A stretch of 64,000 nt of DNA from Deltaproteobacteria bacterium (GTDB taxonomy: Bacteria > Desulfobacterota > GWC2-55-46). Both the position numbers and the translations under genes were made by a program. A model generated the notes under the pieces. That model had not been told where the DNA came from. It searched no databases and worked only from the letters and a program-made list of their open reading frames with translations. The stretch covers positions 187,005 through 251,004 of the forward strand of contig JACOUO010000014.1 in NCBI GenBank assembly GCA_016177845.1, written 5' to 3'. Positions 32,857 through 39,992 of the stretch are shown in pieces; the first letter of the stretch is position 1; every line of letters begins with the position of its first letter.

Positions 32857-34617
32857 TCACCTTTTAAACATCACTTCTATCTCGCTTCTCGTAAATTTTT
32901 TGATTACAGGCCTGCCGTGAGGGCAGTGCCCCGCAAAATCTATCTTAACCATCTCCCTTATAAGGGCGTTTCCCTCTTCCCTTGTAAGCGGTCTCGGCCC
33001 CCTGATAACGCTGTGGCAGGCTATCCTCATAAGGGCCTCCTCAATCCTGTCTTCAACCCTTGACGAGCCGCCTACTGAGGAGAGTTCTTCAGCCAAATCT
33101 CTTATAAGAGTACCGCAGCTTTTTGCTGAAAGCAAATCAGGCACAGACTTTAAAAGGAATGTCTCGCCGCCTGTCTTTATGGAAGGCCCGAAGGGCATTA
33201 TCTCAAATCCAAGCCTGTCCAGATAATCCATTGATTCGTTTATCGAATCCCGTTCTTCGGGTGTGGTCTCAATGCGCTCAGGCAACAGAAGCATCTGCCG
33301 TTTTATCTTTGCTTCCATGAACTGCTTTTTAAGCCTCTCAAATGCGCTTCTTTCTGCCGCGCCGTGCTGGTCTATCAAATAAAGCTCGCCCCCGTTTGCC
33401 TTTGACTGGGCCAGTAAAAATTCGCCCCAGACCTGCCCGATTGTATCAAGCTCAAGCAGTTCAGGGTTTTTGACTTCTTCAGTATCCCGGTGGAACTCAA
33501 GCCGTCTTTCAACAGGCTCATCAAAATAAAAAGGGGCAGTCTCGGCGGCAAAAGATTCTTTTGATTGCGACACAGGGTAGCTTAAGTTATTGCCGTAAAC
33601 AGGACGGCTTGAATACGAAATAGAAGGGGCGGCTTTTGAAGGCAAAAGCCCTGTTGAGAGAGCCCCTCTGATTGCGTATTTGACGCTGTCGTAGATGAAT
33701 CTGGTGTTTTTAAACCGTACTTCGCTCTTGGTGGGGTGGATGTTTACATCTACATCCTCAAAGGGAATAATAAGGTCAAGCACAGCGAAGGGGTATCTTG
33801 AGTCGATTATCGACCCATATCCGTCAATTATAGCACGGTTTACGCCTTTGTCACGGATGGCGCGCCCGTTCACATAGGTATAGATTCCCTTGCTTGTAGG
33901 GAATGTCAGGTCAGGGGAGCTGATAAAGCCTGTCAGGTGAGGGGATTTTACCTCAATAAGGCTCTTTATGACCTCAATGCCGAATAAGTCCGCAATCCTT
34001 TGTTTCAGAGTGCCTGGTGCGGTCTCAAGGGCCCTGCCTGAGCCGTGTATTATCTTAAACCTCTTATCAGGGTTGATTAGCGCAATCTTTTTAAATACAT
34101 CAAGTATCTTTCCGTACTCGGACTCATTTGACCTTAGGAATTTAAGCCTTGCGGGTGTGTTGAAGAAGAGGTCTTTTACCTCGATGGAGGTGCCTTCAGG
34201 CGTACCGTCTTCGGATACCTCAGGGGTTGTGGAGCCTTCTATGACAACCATTGTGCCGGAGATATCCTCAGGACGCCTTGTCTTTAAGGTAACTCTGGCA
34301 ATGGATGAAATGCTTGAGAGCGCTTCACCCCTGAACCCCATTGTCCTGATGGAATAAAGGTCGTCTTCGCTTGATATTTTGGAAGTGGCATGGCGGTAGA
34401 ACGCAAGAGGGGCGTCTTCTTTTGAGATGCCGTGGCCGTTGTCAACGATGCGGATAAGCCTTTTGCCGCCCTCGATGATATGTACGGAGATGGAGGTAGC
34501 CCCTGCGTCAAGGGCGTTTTCCATCAGCTCCTTTACGACCGAGGCAGGTCTTTCTACGACCTCGCCTGCGGCAATTTTAGAGGCAAGCAGCTCATCAAGT
34601 ATCTTTATCTTAGCCAT
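32857..34617 (-). CDS. mutL: DNA mismatch repair protein MutL
   Basis: GHKL ATPase N-terminus (IAAGEVVERPASVVKELMENALDAGAT), transducer domain and C-terminal dimerisation domain. 586 aa. Confidence 0.9.
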   Translation of the reverse strand: MAKIKILDELLASKIAAGEVVERPASVVKELMENALDAGATSISVHIIEGGKRLIRIVDNGHGISKEDAPLAFYRHATSKISSEDDLYSIRTMGFRGEALSSISSIARVTLKTRRPEDISGTMVVIEGSTTPEVSEDGTPEGTSIEVKDLFFNTPARLKFLRSNESEYGKILDVFKKIALINPDKRFKIIHGSGRALETAPGTLKQRIADLFGIEVIKSLIEVKSPHLTGFISSPDLTFPTSKGIYTYVNGRAIRDKGVNRAIIDGYGSIIDSRYPFAVLDLIIPFEDVDVNIHPTKSEVRFKNTRFIYDSVKYAIRGALSTGLLPSKAAPSISYSSRPVYGNNLSYPVSQSKESFAAETAPFYFDEPVERRLEFHRDTEEVKNPELLELDTIGQVWGEFLLAQSKANGGELYLIDQHGAAERSAFERLKKQFMEAKIKRQMLLLPERIETTPEERDSINESMDYLDRLGFEIMPFGPSIKTGGETFLLKSVPDLLSAKSCGTLIRDLAEELSSVGGSSRVEDRIEEALMRIACHSVIRGPRPLTREEGNALIREMVKIDFAGHCPHGRPVIKKFTRSEIEVMFKR

Positions 34618-34632
34618 TTACAAATTTCCTGC

Positions 34633-35310
34633 TTATAAGAACCTGCTTAACGGGCATTGTTCGCAGAGCGGTTTTTTTGTTTTACAGTAATCTTTGCCAA
34701 GCCTTACTATCAAGGCATGGTATTCGTTGAACATGGTCAGGTCTTTCGGGAGGTTATCCATAAAGACCGCCTTCATCTCTTCGTAGCTGATATCTTCGCC
34801 TACAAACCCGTGCCTTGAAAAGACCCTCTTTGTATAGGCATCTACCACAAATTCAGGGTAAGAGGCGGCGTAGAGGATTATGGAGTCAGCTGTTTCAGGG
34901 CCGATGCCGTTTATCCCAAGCAGTTCCTGCCTTAAGGAGGCGGCGTTTTTCCTGAAAAGCCTCTCAAGGCTTCCGTTATAATTATCAAAAAGATGGTTTA
35001 TGAAGTGCTTAAGGCGTTTTGCCTTTATGTTGAAGTACCCTGCCGGCCTGATTAGCCCGGCAAGCTCAGTATGTTCAATGCGGTGCATCTTCTCAGGCGT
35101 AAGAAGCCCCTTTGCCTTGAGGTTCTTTATTGCCTTCTCGACATTTGTCCAAGCGGTATTCTGTGTAAGGATTGCCCCGATTATTATCTCGAAGCGGGTA
35201 TCTCCGGGCCACCATCCCTGTGGCCCGAAAGATTTGAATAGACTATTGTAGAAATCCAACAGTGATGAGGGGATGTCTTTTTTCTTCAAAGCGCGCATAC
35301 TGAATGCCAA
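34633..35310 (-). CDS. HhH-GPD / endonuclease III-related DNA glycosylase-like protein
   Basis: HhH motif (LLGINGIGPETADSI) and a C-terminal Cys cluster (C..C..C...C), as in the EndoIII-related family. Confidence 0.7.
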   Translation of the reverse strand: MAFSMRALKKKDIPSSLLDFYNSLFKSFGPQGWWPGDTRFEIIIGAILTQNTAWTNVEKAIKNLKAKGLLTPEKMHRIEHTELAGLIRPAGYFNIKAKRLKHFINHLFDNYNGSLERLFRKNAASLRQELLGINGIGPETADSIILYAASYPEFVVDAYTKRVFSRHGFVGEDISYEEMKAVFMDNLPKDLTMFNEYHALIVRLGKDYCKTKKPLCEQCPLSRFL

Positions 35311-35340
35311 AAATCCCCGCCATTTTGGGCGTGGTTTTAA

Positions 35341-37077
35341 TTACAGGTTTTTAAGGCGTTCCACTTCCCTTTCGGTCAGCATCCTGTACTGGCCGGGCTC
35401 AAGGCTTCCAAGCTTTATTCCAGCGAACTCAACTCTCTTAAGCTTTATGACAGGGTGTCCTATTGCCTGACACATCCTTTTGACAAGCCTGTTCCTGCCC
35501 TCTATTACGGTAATCTCTATCCAGGAGTTCTCCTGAGTTTCCTTTACAAACCTTGCCCTTGCAGGCAGAGTCCTTCCGTCCTCAAGGTAAACCCCGCGTT
35601 CCAGCTTCTCAATGTCTTCCCTCTTAGGCACATCCTTGACCTTTACAAGGTACTTTTTAGGGACTTTGAAGTTCGGGTGGATGAGCTTGTTTGAAAGCTC
35701 GCCGTCATTGGTAAGAAGTATTACCCCTTCGGCATCATAGTCCAGCCTGCCAATGGGATAAACCCTTTCCTTTGTATTGACAAGGTCGGTCACTACCTGC
35801 CTGTGAAGCGGGTCAGTAACCGCGCTGATGCAATCCTTTGGCTTATTTAAAAGTATATAGACCTTTGGCCCTTTGAACGAAATGAGCTTTCCGTCAACCG
35901 CTATCCTGTCCTTGAACGGGTCTGCTTTTGCCCCGACCTCAGTAACAGTATGGTTGTTTACGGTTACTCTGCCCTGAGTTACAAGCTCCTCTGCCTTTCT
36001 TCTGGATGTGATACCGGCAGCGGAGATGATCTTTTGAAGCCTTTCCTCATGCCCTTCCTCCAGATGGCGTGCAGGCTGTGGGGTTTTAGACCTTCTCGGC
36101 CTTGCTGGCCTCTGGGGCCTTTCCGACCACTTGGGCTTATCTGAACCCTCAGGTCTTTCAGGCCTTTCAGTCCCTTCAAAACGCTTCGGTCTTTCAGGCC
36201 TTTCTGACCTCTCAAACCTCTTAGGCCTTTCGCTTCTTTCCGATCTCTCAGGCCTCTCAAACCTTTGCGGCCTTTCGGGCCTTTCGGTTCTATTTGGCTT
36301 GTCAGTTCCTTCAAAACGCTTCGGTCTTACAGGCCTTTCCGACCTCTCAAACCTCTTAGGCCTTTCGCTTCTTTCAGATCTCTCAGGTCTCTCAAACCTT
36401 TGCGGCCTTTCCCGTCTTTCGGTTCTCTCGGATGACGACCAATCAAACTTTTTCTTTATCTGGTCTGTCCTCTCCCTCGTCTCCGATTCCTTCCTCGGGT
36501 ATCTCCTCGGAGCGTCCTGTGAGGCTCTCTCGTCCTTCTTCCAAGGCTTCTTCCTCAGTTCCTTCTGTGAGGTCTTCCCCTCCGGCCTCCAGACCAGAGT
36601 CCTCTCCCTCGTCTCCGATTCCTTCTTCGGGTATCTCTTCGCAGTGTCCTGTGAGGTCCTCTTCTCCCTGTTCCAGGATTGGTTCTTCTCCGAGTCCCTC
36701 CGGGTAGTCCTCTCCTCCGGCTTCCAGGACTGAGTCCCCTCCCTCGTCTCCGAGTTCCTCCTCGGATATCTCTTCGGAGCTTCCTCTGAGGGGTTCTCCT
36801 CCCTCTTCTTCCAAGGCTGGCTCCTGATGTTCTTCTTCATATCCATCCGGGAAGTCTTCTCCTCCGGCCTCCAGGACTGAGTCTTCTCCCTCGTCTCTGA
36901 TTGCCTCCTGGGACGGCCTTCCCTGTTCGGACGACCTTCCGTTCTCGGACGGTCCTCCCTCCTGTTCCTGTTCTCCTGCGCCCTCTTCTGATTCGGGCGG
37001 GTTTTGGGCGGCATTTTCTTCCTCCATTTTCTGTAAATCTTTAAGGCTCGGCAGGCACGAGAGGTCTTTAAGATCAA
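35341..37077 (-). CDS. rluB: RluB/RsuA-family pseudouridine synthase with an S4 domain and a long Arg/Glu-rich low-complexity N-terminal extension (start unresolved)
   Basis: The core (from about 36070 downward) has the S4 domain (ERLQKIISAAGITSRRKAEELV) and the pseudouridine synthase catalytic region (GRLDYDAEGVILLTNDG). There is no ATG, GTG or TTG in frame between the scpB stop (36443) and the S4 domain. The frame is open upstream to 37077 through the GA-rich repeats, in the +1 frame relative to scpB. Confidence 0.6.
   Translation of the reverse strand: MILKTSRACRALKIYRKWRKKMPPKTRPNQKRAQENRNRREDRPRTEGRPNREGRPRRQSETREKTQSWRPEEKTSRMDMKKNIRSQPWKKREENPSEEAPKRYPRRNSETREGTQSWKPEERTTRRDSEKNQSWNREKRTSQDTAKRYPKKESETRERTLVWRPEGKTSQKELRKKPWKKDERASQDAPRRYPRKESETRERTDQIKKKFDWSSSERTERRERPQRFERPERSERSERPKRFERSERPVRPKRFEGTDKPNRTERPERPQRFERPERSERSERPKRFERSERPERPKRFEGTERPERPEGSDKPKWSERPQRPARPRRSKTPQPARHLEEGHEERLQKIISAAGITSRRKAEELVTQGRVTVNNHTVTEVGAKADPFKDRIAVDGKLISFKGPKVYILLNKPKDCISAVTDPLHRQVVTDLVNTKERVYPIGRLDYDAEGVILLTNDGELSNKLIHPNFKVPKKYLVKVKDVPKREDIEKLERGVYLEDGRTLPARARFVKETQENSWIEITVIEGRNRLVKRMCQAIGHPVIKLKRVEFAGIKLGSLEPGQYRMLTEREVERLKNL
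36130..36900. repeat. GA-rich coding tandem repeats (2 x ~123 bp at 36130-36430; ~3 x 130-147 bp at 36460-36900)
   Basis: Direct reading of the sequence. The repeats encode ~44-49-aa acidic repeats in the ScpB tail (EGEDSVLEAGGED...EEIPEEGIGD) and R/E/P repeats (ERPERSERSERPKRFERSERP) in the rluB frame. Confidence 0.8.
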
Positions 37078-37546
37078 ATGTTTCCAGGAATTCCCTTGTA
37101 GTGCCGTAAACCACTGGCCTGCCGGGGACTTCCCTTCTGCCTACTATTTTTATGAATCTCTTCTCCATAAGGGTAGCAAGGACTCCACCTGAGTCCACGC
37201 CTCTTATGGCTTCAAGCTCACCCCTTGTAAGGGGCTGCTTGTATGCAATGATAGCAAGGCTTTCCATTGCCGCCTTGCTTATCTTCTGTGCGCCTATTTT
37301 AAAGAACTTCCGCAGCCACGGCGCGAACTCCGGGTTTGTCCTGAACTGGTAACCCCCGGCAACCTCTTCTATCAAAAAGCCACCGCTTCTGGCTTTATAG
37401 TCCTCAATCAGTTCCGCTAACGCTTCCTTTATTATTTGCCTGTCCTCGCCTTCAAGCACATTGGCGAGCTTCTCAAAGCTGATTGCGCTGTCCGCGGCAA
37501 AGATAAGGGATTCCAATACAGGCTTAAGACTGATTTTATCCAGCAT
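36443..37546 (-). CDS. scpB: segregation and condensation protein B with a ~170-aa acidic repetitive C-terminal tail
   Basis: Two ScpB winged-helix domains (LESLIFAADSAISFEKLANVL...; GELEAIRGVDSGGVLATLMEKRFI) followed by Glu/Gly/Asp-rich tandem repeats. Confidence 0.85.
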   Translation of the reverse strand: MLDKISLKPVLESLIFAADSAISFEKLANVLEGEDRQIIKEALAELIEDYKARSGGFLIEEVAGGYQFRTNPEFAPWLRKFFKIGAQKISKAAMESLAIIAYKQPLTRGELEAIRGVDSGGVLATLMEKRFIKIVGRREVPGRPVVYGTTREFLETFDLKDLSCLPSLKDLQKMEEENAAQNPPESEEGAGEQEQEGGPSENGRSSEQGRPSQEAIRDEGEDSVLEAGGEDFPDGYEEEHQEPALEEEGGEPLRGSSEEISEEELGDEGGDSVLEAGGEDYPEGLGEEPILEQGEEDLTGHCEEIPEEGIGDEGEDSGLEAGGEDLTEGTEEEALEEGRESLTGRSEEIPEEGIGDEGEDRPDKEKV

Positions 37547-37564
37547 AGGCTCTAAGTTCTTCCT

Positions 37565-38356
37565 TTACCCGTTATTTTCGGATTCTGTAGTAGTGGGCTC
37601 TGCGGCAAGCTCCGCTGCTTGTTCCTGTTCGGCATTCTCCTGCGGAGCGGGCAGATAGACTCTTATTACACCGTCATCTGTCTGGTGGATCTTTATCATG
37701 GTGAGCTTCGCAAGCTCAAGAATGGCAAGGAATGTAACTACAATTTCGCCTTTTGTTGAACCTTCGGCAAATAAAGCGGTAAATGTGGAACTTTTCAGGG
37801 TGTTGAGGTGCTCCATTATATCATTTATCTTATCCGCTATCTTAAACCGCTCAGAGGTAAGCTCAATCTTTCTCTCTTTAGGGGCTTTGGCAAGGACATC
37901 CTTCAAAGCCTCCATGAGGTCAAAGACAGAAACGCTCATGAATCCTGCCCCTTCCTCAAGCTCTTCTACAGGTATTTCAGAGCCCCTTGGGAATACATCT
38001 CTTCCGAGCACTACTCTTTCCCCAAGCTCTTTGGCAGCTTCTTTATACCTCTGGTACTCAAGGAGCCTCCTGACAAGCTCTTCCCTCGGGTCTGCCCCTT
38101 CTTCTTCCTCTTCTGGGGCTTCCTCATCCACGGGCAGCAGCATCTTGCTCTTGATATGCACAAGGCTCGCCGCCATTACGAGGAACTCACCCGCAAAATC
38201 AAGGTTCATCTCTTTCATCAGCTCAATATACTGAAGGTACTGCTCTGTAATGACAGCTACGGGAATATCGTAGATATCCACCTCGTTCTTCTTTATAAGA
38301 TGAAGAAGGAGGTCAAGAGGGCCTTCGAATATATCGAGTTTGATATTATAGAACAT
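37565..38356 (-). CDS. scpA: segregation and condensation protein A
   Basis: ScpA N-terminal motif FEGPLDLLLHLIKKNEVDIYDIPVAVITEQYL. ATG at 38356, 4 nt after the trpS stop. The ORF-track start at 38368 is TTG. Confidence 0.85.
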   Translation of the reverse strand: MFYNIKLDIFEGPLDLLLHLIKKNEVDIYDIPVAVITEQYLQYIELMKEMNLDFAGEFLVMAASLVHIKSKMLLPVDEEAPEEEEEGADPREELVRRLLEYQRYKEAAKELGERVVLGRDVFPRGSEIPVEELEEGAGFMSVSVFDLMEALKDVLAKAPKERKIELTSERFKIADKINDIMEHLNTLKSSTFTALFAEGSTKGEIVVTFLAILELAKLTMIKIHQTDDGVIRVYLPAPQENAEQEQAAELAAEPTTTESENNG

Positions 38357-38360
38357 TGCT

Positions 38361-39350
38361 TTATTCAAGCCCCATAGCGGCTCTTACCTGCTTCATGGTC
38401 TGATTGGCGACTTCAGAAGCTTTTACCGCACCCTGCTTAAGTATTGACCATACAAGCTCAGGGTCTTTTTCAAGCTCTTTGCGCCTTTTCTGTATAGGTT
38501 CTATATTGGCAAGCACCTTAGGTATAACGGATTTTTTGCACTCGGTGCAGCCTATGAGCGCCTTTGTGCAGCCTTCCCTGACCCATTCGATTGTTTTTTC
38601 ATCAGAATAAAGGTTATGGAATGTAAGGAAGAACGGGCAGACATCAGGGCTTCCGGCATCTGTCCTTCTTTTTCTGGCAGTATCCGTCATCATGTAAAGA
38701 ATCTTCTTTTCAATCTCTTCCGGCGTGTCAGAAAGAAAGATTGCGTTATTATAGCTCTTGCTCATCTTCCTGCCGTCAGTTCCCAGCACCTTGGGAATAG
38801 AGGTAAGAAGCGTCTGCGGTTCAGGGAATACCTCCCCGTAGAAGTAGTTAAACCTTCTGGTAATCTCCCTTGAAAGCTCAAGGTGAGGGGCCTGGTCTAT
38901 ACCTACAGGCACTTTATTTGCCTTATAGATTATGATATCCGCTGTCTGCAGCACAGGGTAGCCGAGAAAACCGTATGTATGGAGGTCTTTATCCTTTATC
39001 TCCTGAATCTGTTCCTTGTAAGTAGGGTTTCTCTCAAGCCAGGGCAGTGGGGTTATCATGGACAGGAGCACATTAAGCTCCGCATGTTCCTTAATGGCAG
39101 ACTGGCGGAAAATCGTTGATTTTGCCGGGTCTATGCCCACGGCGAGCCAGTCCAGCACCATCTGCCTTACATTCTCCTTGATGCCTGAGGGGTTTGCGTA
39201 ATCGGTAGTAAGGGCGTGCCAGTCAGCTACGAAGAAGAAACACTCGTACTCCTCCTGAAGCTTTAGCCAATTGGCAAGAACCCCGTGATAATGGCCAAAA
39301 TGCAGTTTACCTGTCGGCCTCATTCCGCTTAAAACTCGGGCCTGCGACAT
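38361..39350 (-). CDS. trpS: tryptophan--tRNA ligase
   Basis: Class I HIGH motif (GKLHFGHYHG) and KMSKS. Confidence 0.9.
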   Translation of the reverse strand: MSQARVLSGMRPTGKLHFGHYHGVLANWLKLQEEYECFFFVADWHALTTDYANPSGIKENVRQMVLDWLAVGIDPAKSTIFRQSAIKEHAELNVLLSMITPLPWLERNPTYKEQIQEIKDKDLHTYGFLGYPVLQTADIIIYKANKVPVGIDQAPHLELSREITRRFNYFYGEVFPEPQTLLTSIPKVLGTDGRKMSKSYNNAIFLSDTPEEIEKKILYMMTDTARKRRTDAGSPDVCPFFLTFHNLYSDEKTIEWVREGCTKALIGCTECKKSVIPKVLANIEPIQKRRKELEKDPELVWSILKQGAVKASEVANQTMKQVRAAMGLE

Positions 39351-39992
39351 TTACAAAATACCTCCCGTAAGAAGACCCACTAATAGAAATACTATCGGTG
39401 AGATGAACTTGTTCAGAACTCCTGAGACTATAAGGACCAAAAGTATTATGAAGCCGTATTGTTCAAGTCTTGCGTATGCGAATGCCTTTGCCGGGGGAAG
39501 CAGGTTTGCCAAAACCTTGCTGCCGTCAAGCGGAGGCACAGGCACAAGATTAAATACCGCAAGCGAGACATTCATCAGCACGCTGTACTCTATCATCACG
39601 AAAAGCGGGTTATAAACACCCGGCATGCTGACGCCGAAAGTTGGCTCCGCCAATATAAAAAGCTTGTAAGCAAGCGCTGAGATGGCCGCAAGGAAAAGAT
39701 TGGCCAACGGGCCTGCAAGCGCAATCCACATGAGAGACTTTGAGATATTCTTAAGGTTTCTCGGGTTTATGGGAACGGGTTTTGCCCATCCGAATAAGCC
39801 TGAGAAGAAGAGCATCAAAGTACCTACAAGGTCAAGGTGCTTTAAAGGGTTTAAACTAACCCTGCCGAGCATCTTTGCCGTGGGGTCTCCAAGCCTGTAC
39901 GCTACCCATGCATGCGCGCACTCATGAATGGTAAGGGCGAGCAGAATAGGGGGCGCTGTCAGAAGCAATCTTTGGAAATACTCTTGGAACAT
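39351..39992 (-). CDS. site-2 protease family (M50-like) membrane metalloprotease
   Basis: HExxH in a TM helix (LTIHECAHAW) and multiple TM segments. Confidence 0.75.
   Translation of the reverse strand: MFQEYFQRLLLTAPPILLALTIHECAHAWVAYRLGDPTAKMLGRVSLNPLKHLDLVGTLMLFFSGLFGWAKPVPINPRNLKNISKSLMWIALAGPLANLFLAAISALAYKLFILAEPTFGVSMPGVYNPLFVMIEYSVLMNVSLAVFNLVPVPPLDGSKVLANLLPPAKAFAYARLEQYGFIILLVLIVSGVLNKFISPIVFLLVGLLTGGIL

Follow-up and report, generated by a model that had tools for sequence, protein, structure and literature searches.

We analysed a 64,000-nucleotide (nt) stretch from the genome of an uncultured Deltaproteobacteria bacterium (Desulfobacterota GWC2-55-46; assembly GCA_016177845.1, contig JACOUO010000014.1, positions 187,005-251,004), hereafter the window, in which the chromosome-packing gene scpB and the gene that follows it, encoding an RluB-like, rRNA-modifying pseudouridine synthase, appear to share several hundred nucleotides of coding DNA in two reading frames of the same strand. 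Around this junction the genes run M50 protease, trpS, scpA, scpB, rluB-like, HhH-GPD glycosylase and mutL, all of them on the minus strand, as is every gene feature given below. Related loci were gathered from GTDB species representatives, JGI/ENA metagenome contigs and exact-protein look-ups. The resulting clade set contained 28 distinct related loci, plus the loci L047, L048, and L050, of which L047 is an independent strain-level assembly from a different sample (Logan SRR22388143). The source records of the relatives were Deltaproteobacteria or Thermodesulfobacteriota metagenome-assembled genomes (MAGs) from groundwater and sediment.

The scpB gene and its acidic tail

The scpB frame was read from an ATG at 37546 to a TGA at 36445-36443 without an earlier stop (36443-37546 including the stop codon), and the predicted protein of 367 amino acids (aa) is present in NCBI as an exact sequence (GenBank MBI1912207.1). 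Its core matched PF04079 (E = 2e-51, aa 11-168), with Pfam and NCBIfam together covering approximately aa 7-172. By these coordinates, the folded core is encoded at 37013-37546, in DNA that is not shared with rluB. Membership of the ScpB family was supported by the TIGR00281 equivalog model (125.5 bits, cutoff 89.2) and by the adjoining scpA, and the core was 54-89% identical to the cores of the relatives.

Beyond the junction with rluB, ScpB carries a low-complexity tail of 189 aa that is rich in Glu, Gly, and Asp and includes the sequence DSVLEAGGEDFPDGYEEEHQEPALEEEGGEPLR. On the ScpB side of the overlap, 38% of the residues are Asp or Glu and the net charge is -62. The tail contains three repeat units of 147, 135, and 132 nt (49, 45, and 44 aa), starting at 36895, 36748, and 36613, respectively. 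All three lengths are multiples of three, and the units differ from one another evenly by codon position (28, 31, and 24 differences). Tandem Repeats Finder (TRF) placed a GA-rich tandem array at 36467-36808, within the overlap, with a period of 135 nt and 2.6 copies at 79%. A first-pass annotation of the window, made from the letters alone, had put the end of scpB at 36443 and described a tail of approximately 170 aa made of three repeats of approximately 44-49 aa; the end and the repeats agree with our analysis, and the tail itself is slightly longer than described. ScpB database entries of 260-441 aa were common in the group.

The rluB-like frame and its start codon

The rluB-like frame is displaced by +1 relative to scpB and is open from 37140 to its stop codon at 35341-35343. 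The listed open reading frame (ORF) begins at a TTG at 37077, the point to which the first-pass annotation had traced the open +1 frame, and encodes 578 aa with an S4 domain at aa 345-386 and a PseudoU_synth_2 domain at aa 407-538. The RluB-like core, which comprises the S4 domain (PF01479) and the RsuA/RluB-type pseudouridine synthase domain (PF00849), occupies 35341-36045 including the stop. Together with a TIGR00093 match (177.4 bits, cutoff 109.3), these two domains place the protein in the RsuA/RluB/RluE/RluF synthase family, and the catalytic-Asp motif GRLD is present within YPIGRLDYDAEG. The cutoff of the RluB equivalog NF007976 was not reached (122 vs 290 bits), and the RluF model likewise fell short (136 vs 318 bits). 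The gene owes the name rluB to the scpA-scpB-rluB synteny and to the names used in databases, and RluB-like is therefore the safer label.

Canonical start codons in this frame are limited to TTG 37077, ATG 37014, ATG 36846, and ATG 36840. No in-frame ATG, GTG, or TTG occurs across the 795 nt from 36840 to the S4 domain (the E of ERLQK, 36045). Depending on the start chosen, the overlap with scpB is 398, 404, 572, or 635 nt, with the most downstream ATG (36840) giving 398 nt. These values bear out two earlier statements, namely that the genes overlap for 400-630 nt inside GA-rich repeats and that the stretch from the scpB stop to the S4 domain is free of in-frame ATG, GTG, and TTG codons. The nearest upstream ATG had been placed at about 36846, some 400 nt inside scpB; the position needs only the trivial correction that 36840 is nearer.

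The start that had been missed is ATG 37014 (37012-37014), which is preceded by GGAGGA 6 nt upstream and is conserved in the relatives. It is the sole in-frame start with a well-spaced Shine-Dalgarno (SD) sequence (GGAGGA at 37020-37025, aaaatggaggaagaaaATG). The scpB codons K-M-E-E-E-N (aaa atg gag gaa gaa aat gcc) hold both elements, with M-E-E forming the SD and the ATG lying in the +1 frame. In the independent assembly L047, the gene caller also picked the MPPKTRPNQ start (P0122, 566 aa). Homologues with 58-76% core identity start at the equivalent ATG and have N-termini like the MPPKTRPNQKR of the window (e.g., MPRxxGK..PRTQSKTQFKGPRKPQ). Judged from these features, ATG 37014 is most likely the real rluB start. 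The predicted protein from this codon has 557 aa, of which 323 form a basic N-terminal extension, and the dual-coding overlap spans 572 nt (36443-37014), covering the ScpB acidic tail and the first 190 aa of the RluB extension (33% Lys + Arg, net charge +28).

The remainder of the extension (36046-36442) codes for RluB alone and consists of ERPxRFERPERSERS repeats and a linker; only the RluB frame is open across it, and many stops interrupt the ScpB frame. A second 135-nt tandem array (36167-36426; 1.9 copies, 93%) lies in this part, 3' of the scpB stop, and encodes the ERPxRFERPERSERS repeats, its two copies differing mainly at codon position 3. The two arrays have an equal period of 135 nt, and only the upstream one is dual-coding. 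The possibility that they are frame-shifted copies of each other was rejected, as blastn found no similarity between them.

A different view of the locus is that there is no long overlap: RluB would start at a non-canonical codon, either CTG 36063 or ATA 36459, and the open frame farther upstream would be a by-product of T-poor tail DNA. The NCBI annotation follows the first of these choices, with a 240-aa RluB (GenBank MBI1912206.1; P0001) that equals the ORF from codon 339 with the CTG at 36061-36063 read as Met. ATA 36459 has a GGGAGAGGA motif 8 nt upstream. We found no SD upstream of CTG 36063. The 397 nt that separate the scpB stop from the S4 domain show position-3-dominated change and in-frame indels, and so change in the manner of DNA that codes in the RluB frame; translation should therefore start upstream of the scpB stop. 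CTG 36063 was rejected on these two grounds and is unlikely to be the real start. Initiation at ATA codons is very poor, and ATA 36459 is not conserved. The SD and ATG at the junction are conserved in the clade, where several relatives have no other canonical start, and the codons after the junction ATG vary in an RluB-like pattern. With the stop-codon counts given below, we regard a downstream start as quite improbable.

Conservation of the overlap in related bacteria

In all clade loci, the rluB frame is scpB +1 and scpB is open past the start of the synthase. Measured from the junction start, the overlap ranges from 113 to 734 nt across the clade loci. The junction sequence 'cagaaRatggaggaagaRnATG' is nearly invariant in the clade, with the ScpB residues QKMEEE[N/Y] supplying the SD and the +1 ATG. 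The start is homologous to ATG 37014 in L001-L009, L019, L022-L041, and L047. No canonical start other than the one at the junction exists in L010, L012, L022, and L041, whose overlaps are accordingly 113, 161, 512, and 368 nt, respectively. The scpB gene terminates 104-131 nt into the S4-coding sequence in many lineages, the most distant included (RluB core 60-65% identical); from the sequences compared, this looks like the ancestral state of the clade.

The first-pass annotation had named a conventional scpB-rluB junction in orthologues as the observation that would speak against an overlap. No such junction was found in the clade; it occurred only in distant outgroups, where L014 has a 59-nt gap, L016 an 11-nt overlap, and L044 an overlap of at most 62 nt. 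Two of these outgroups, L014 and L044, already have short acidic ScpB tails.

Within the clade, the ScpB tail and the RluB extension vary together in length (r = 0.89, n = 28). The net charges encoded by the shared DNA of the same 28 loci range from -3 to -74 in ScpB and from +6 to +43 in RluB. The N-terminal position of the basic extension had been described as unusual, which is correct in general; it is not unique to the window, and orthologous rluB genes carry the extension across the clade, where it is the rule for this enzyme. The ScpB tails of one sub-lineage (L008, L022-L026; P0123, P0125, P0126, P0163) share a repeated motif, PDLEERDREGDPDSE, which reads as RTLRKETGKETRTQR in the synthase frame, and most tails bearing it end in TEGKV*. 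In a sister lineage (L050, JGI Ga0136847_10145268; P0063, P0078, P0107), a basic repeat tail with GPRRTYDRKTGVGSEKP-like units is located at the C-terminus of the synthase rather than the N-terminus. L050 is the one locus examined from this lineage, and there scpB still terminates 125 nt within S4-coding DNA.

The first-pass annotation had offered three explanations of the junction: genuine overprinting, a frameshift or collapse error in the repeats, and programmed frameshifting or translational coupling that yields a fusion protein. A sequencing or assembly error has some initial appeal, as the region is repetitive and comes from a MAG. L047, with the same structure as the window, is collinear with it; the overlap differs by 7 substitutions, and the indels found elsewhere (9 and 18 nt) all keep the frame. 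More than 28 other assemblies from different studies have the same two open frames with the same offset. The constant offset and L047 effectively refute an error of this kind, to which we give next to no probability.

Programmed +1 frameshifting or transcriptional slippage would have the enzyme made as a ScpB-RluB fusion, and the invariable +1 offset would fit such a mechanism. So would L043 (JGI Ga0209751_10007204, junction ~230-265), where A6 instead of A7 in ctcaaaaaa(a)tggaggaagaatATG produces a continuous ScpB-RluB ORF, for which a homopolymer error is a simpler explanation than a real allele. The A7 run is found only in the sub-lineage L028, L032, and L034, and the window has AAAA at this point ('cagaaaatgg'). 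The junction alignment contained no conserved slippery motif or stimulatory structure, and there was no Rfam match. Moreover, the conserved SD and ATG already account for RluB expression; a fusion is unnecessary and, in our assessment, very unlikely.

Stop codons expected and observed in the two frames

Two randomizations were used to estimate how many stop codons the shared DNA should contain. In the first, synonymous codons were resampled with each locus's own codon usage (28 loci); in the second, codon order was shuffled inside each overlap, keeping the exact codon content. Summed over the 28 loci, resampling predicted 156 stops in the ScpB frame when the RluB protein was kept and 28.8 in the RluB frame when ScpB was kept, and the codon-order shuffle predicted 92.6 and 20.0, respectively; none was observed in either frame. 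The loci share ancestry, and the sums therefore do not represent independent trials. Between the major lineages, however, most synonymous sites are randomised, and several lineages show the stop avoidance separately.

For the window alone, resampling predicted 11-12.6 stops in the ScpB frame, and none of 20000 samples was stop-free; the RluB frame was expected to contain 3.4-3.6 stops (P = 0.013-0.018). Shuffling of codon order gave 9.0 expected stops in the ScpB frame (0 of 5000 stop-free, P < 2e-4) and 2.9 in the RluB frame (P = 0.008). None of the 17 T-ending RluB codons in the window overlap precedes AA, AG, or GA. The figures for the RluB frame are where a downstream start finds support: given ScpB alone, only about three stops are expected in the window, and opening by chance is possible (P = 0.008-0.018). 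The 28.8 RluB-frame stops expected and the zero seen across the 28 loci speak against it.

The overlaps are purine-rich, with T contents of 4-17% (9% or less in most loci). We considered whether this composition alone holds the frames open and rejected the idea on two grounds, the codon-order shuffles and the third forward frame of the shared DNA, which contains 158 stops in 3795 codons.

Substitution patterns in the overlap

The overlap of the window differed from that of L047 at 7 of 569 nt (1.2%), with 2, 2, and 3 changes at codon positions 1, 2, and 3. The RluB core had 22 differences, all at position 3 (0, 0, and 22; 9.3% of position-3 sites), and the RluB-only extension had 35 substitutions in 395 nt (3, 6, and 26 by position) along with the indels of 9 and 18 nt. 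The HhH-GPD gene and mutL differed by 3.4-3.7% per nt, and by 6-7.5% at position 3. The position-3 rate was 1.6% in the overlap, significantly below the 9.3% of the RluB core (Fisher P = 6e-4) and the 20% of the RluB-only extension (P = 2e-8), in comparisons that involve small counts and non-independent sequence pairs. The overlap has no fast-evolving codon position, which is the prediction of dual coding. Indels between repeat units or between strains were all multiples of three.

Among the relatives, variation over RluB codons 1-25 was 0.13, 0.09, and 0.22 by codon position, which is the pattern of the synthase frame, and ScpB's own third position was the least variable. Variation in the ScpB core was 0.06, 0.03, and 0.35, and position-3 change in the overlap is damped by comparison. 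In S4 codons 1-34, the proportion of identical-residue codon pairs that differ was 0.35 at loci where scpB overlaps them (0.44 over the remaining codons of the gene) and 0.51 at loci where scpB terminates upstream (0.45 over the remaining codons), in agreement with the comparison with L047.

These data also bear on the view that both frames are translated but that the ScpB tail is functionless read-through to a chance stop, kept open by purine-rich DNA. The low T content of the overlaps agrees with this view, as do the low complexity and variable length of the ScpB tails and the weakness of per-locus tests for short-overlap GC-rich loci. The 7 changes relative to L047 include 4 that are non-synonymous in each frame. 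On the other side stand the stops in the third frame, the 92.6 ScpB-frame stops that the codon-order shuffle predicts and that are absent, and an overall substitution rate that is 3-fold lower in the overlap than in the neighbouring genes. S4 shows less synonymous variation only where scpB overlaps it, and the short acidic ScpB tails of the outgroups L014 and L044 are likewise at odds with functionless read-through. We consider it unlikely.

Taken together, the frames are open beyond what composition explains, no canonical start or stop codon removes the overlap in the window, and synonymous change is reduced. Genuine overprinting, the first of the three explanations offered originally, is supported by the 28 loci and L047, the stop-free frames, and the suppressed substitutions in the overlap. 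With a probability of about 0.75, we conclude from these sequence comparisons that scpB and rluB form a genuine, selected same-strand dual-coding overlap of approximately 572 nt (at least 398 nt), with both frames probably translated. Several points weigh against this conclusion. Only 3 changes were found in 110 scpB-only codons comparable with L047, and the low divergence of the overlap could therefore be partly regional. Alternative downstream starts in L003 and L009 would shrink the overlap to 44 nt. The summed stop expectations carry the shared ancestry noted above, and the per-locus stop test was not significant for several GC-rich loci with short overlaps (P0 about 0.15-0.27). An open RluB frame in the window, given only an acidic ScpB, is unlikely rather than extreme (P about 0.01-0.02), and we infer the translation of either frame within the overlap from sequence.

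Possible origin and function of the overlap

If the overlap is genuine, ribosomes on the scpA-scpB-rluB message would start the synthase from within scpB, at ATG 37014, and produce the 557-aa enzyme, in which a 323-aa extension rich in Lys, Arg, Glu, Pro, and Thr would precede the S4 and catalytic domains. With no scpB stop before 36443, any ribosome that translates scpB adds the 189-aa acidic tail. Both shared tails are expected to be disordered. In the window overlap, 62% of synthase-frame third positions are G, compared with 41% expected. The opposite charges of the tails would follow from the genetic code. Where GA-rich DNA carries a G in the shared third/first position, GAR and GGA codons of the scpB frame (Glu, Gly) would be read one base later as AAG, AGR, and GAG (Lys, Arg, Glu).

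The arrangement may have arisen when the scpB stop was lost in the ancestor of the clade, so that scpB ran on for approximately 36-43 codons within the S4-coding part, as it still does in many relatives. Between the rluB start and the S4 domain, GA-rich segments would then have been inserted and tandemly duplicated, always in multiples of three, and this repeat growth would have lengthened both tails together. In the lineage of the window, the scpB stop would have come to lie upstream of S4, and the extra RluB-only array would have been gained.

The basic tail may aid rRNA binding, as in other RluB-type enzymes with C-terminal basic tails (P0063, P0078, P0107). A further idea, which we hold to be doubtful, is that the overlap itself is adaptive, with one GA-rich module tuning the acidic tail of the condensin subunit ScpB and the basic tail of the rRNA pseudouridine synthase together. 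The two tails might interact electrostatically, or they might be co-regulated because rluB initiation occurs inside translated scpB. If this were true, it would provide a link between chromosome organisation and ribosome biogenesis, and no earlier conserved co-directional overlap that spans hundreds of nucleotides between core genes of bacteria would be as well supported.

Comparison with known overlapping genes

Same-strand bacterial overlaps longer than approximately 60 bp are as a rule taken for annotation errors. A survey that examined 715 co-directional overlaps of more than 60 bp accepted none as real, classing all of them as mispredictions, and the longest overlap it accepted was 56 bp (Palleja et al., PMC2478687). 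The nearest accepted bacterial case is holD/rimI of Enterobacteria, with an overlap of 32-56 bp (PMC2478687). As in holD/rimI, same-strand housekeeping genes share coding DNA at the scpB-rluB junction, and the sharing is conserved in nucleotides and in both protein ends. Unlike holD/rimI, the scpB/rluB overlap is 113-734 nt long (2-13 times longer), contains tandem repeats, and in many relatives reaches approximately 36-43 codons into the folded S4 domain. The scpB/rluB case is backed by several independent sequence tests.

Phage lambda Rz/Rz1 and phiX174 provide examples of overprinted gene pairs. Long dual-coding regions are well known in viruses (review PMC8227390). The scpB/rluB overlap resembles viral and phage overprinting in being a long same-strand overlap in shifted frames, with disordered low-complexity parts and suppressed synonymous change. 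It differs in that it is cellular and involves two conserved core genes, neither of which arose de novo, and in that the C-terminal extension of one old gene is joined to the N-terminal extension of another.

Long antisense overlaps have also been claimed in bacteria, such as olg1/olg2 of P. aeruginosa (PMC8850804) and pop/ompA of enterohaemorrhagic E. coli (EHEC; PMC7103648). Those cases share with ours a long non-trivial overlap of the type that annotation pipelines exclude. They are antisense, embedded, taxonomically young ORFs of unassigned function, whereas scpB/rluB is a same-strand pair of well-known genes conserved in a clade. A stop-loss/start-shift model has been proposed for the origin of unidirectional overlaps, mostly short ones (PMC3887535). 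The loss of the scpB stop and the extension into the downstream gene that we infer agree with this model (PMC3887535), and the later lengthening of the overlap by in-frame repeat expansion that keeps both frames departs from it.

The extension of the synthase also has a counterpart. Its composition recalls the C-terminal basic tails of RsuA/RluB-type enzymes, which are likewise K/R-rich, probably disordered, and often tandem-repeat extensions on an S4 and catalytic core; E. coli RluB has a C-terminal K/R-rich tail of this kind. Here, unlike in those enzymes, the extension is N-terminal, and its first 190 residues share DNA with the ScpB tail.

Our literature search found no paper on a scpB/rluB overlap and nothing useful on acidic ScpB tails. 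What is new is overprinting that is same-strand, hundreds of nucleotides long, conserved in a clade, expanded by repeats, and placed between two core genes. The locus would show how cellular dual coding may arise and grow, through stop loss followed by in-frame expansion of purine-rich repeats. It also offers a clean, natural case on which to try out methods for detecting selection in overlapping frames.

Gene calls at the junction

Annotation pipelines mishandle the overlap, both in the window, where PGAP gave the enzyme its CTG start, and in the relatives. Prodigal-type calls omit scpB in L001 (3466-4476) and L002 (3469-4413). The RluB calls of L048 (2171-2501) and L050 (2378-2562) start inside S4 (202 and 413 aa, respectively) and have no S4 Pfam match, because the calls were trimmed to avoid the overlap. 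Approximately 40 of the 120 best RluB database matches lack a Pfam S4 domain; most of these are 200-230 aa long, and a few are longer through C-terminal tails. The same trimming is probably the cause for the other S4-less entries among the 120 best matches. Starts that are mis-called in this way can mislead marker-gene and domain-content analyses.

Other features of the locus

Upstream of scpB, scpA (37565-38368) matched PF02616 (SMC_ScpA, E = 6e-40) and is the upstream member of the operon-like block. It is separated from scpB by 19 nt in the window, and the scpA-then-scpB order is common to the relatives. The whole gene order from the M50 protease to mutL (window 32857-39992) is also present in relatives with 72-77% RluB-core identity (L002, L048). 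The 3' end of scpA (37565-37640) encodes a short acidic low-complexity tail of its own, PAPQENAEQEQAAELAAEPTTTESENNG, and similar tails are present in the relatives.

An RNA element behind the conservation was considered and rejected, as Rfam gave no match at E ≤ 1 in window positions 35000-38500. A search for an internal sigma-70 promoter for rluB inside scpB found none. Terminator-like matches numbered 12, compared with 6.3 ± 3.4 expected from shuffles, and were mostly on the non-coding strand. An unusually unstructured overlap mRNA, which would favour internal initiation, was not supported, the minimum free energy (MFE) of 300-nt segments being -85 to -92 kcal/mol, compared with -80 ± 13 kcal/mol in the background. 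The third frame of the minus strand contains an ORF of 111 aa (KGLRGLRD... repeats) at 35979-36314, across the RluB-only array, which is most likely a by-product of the T-poor repeats.

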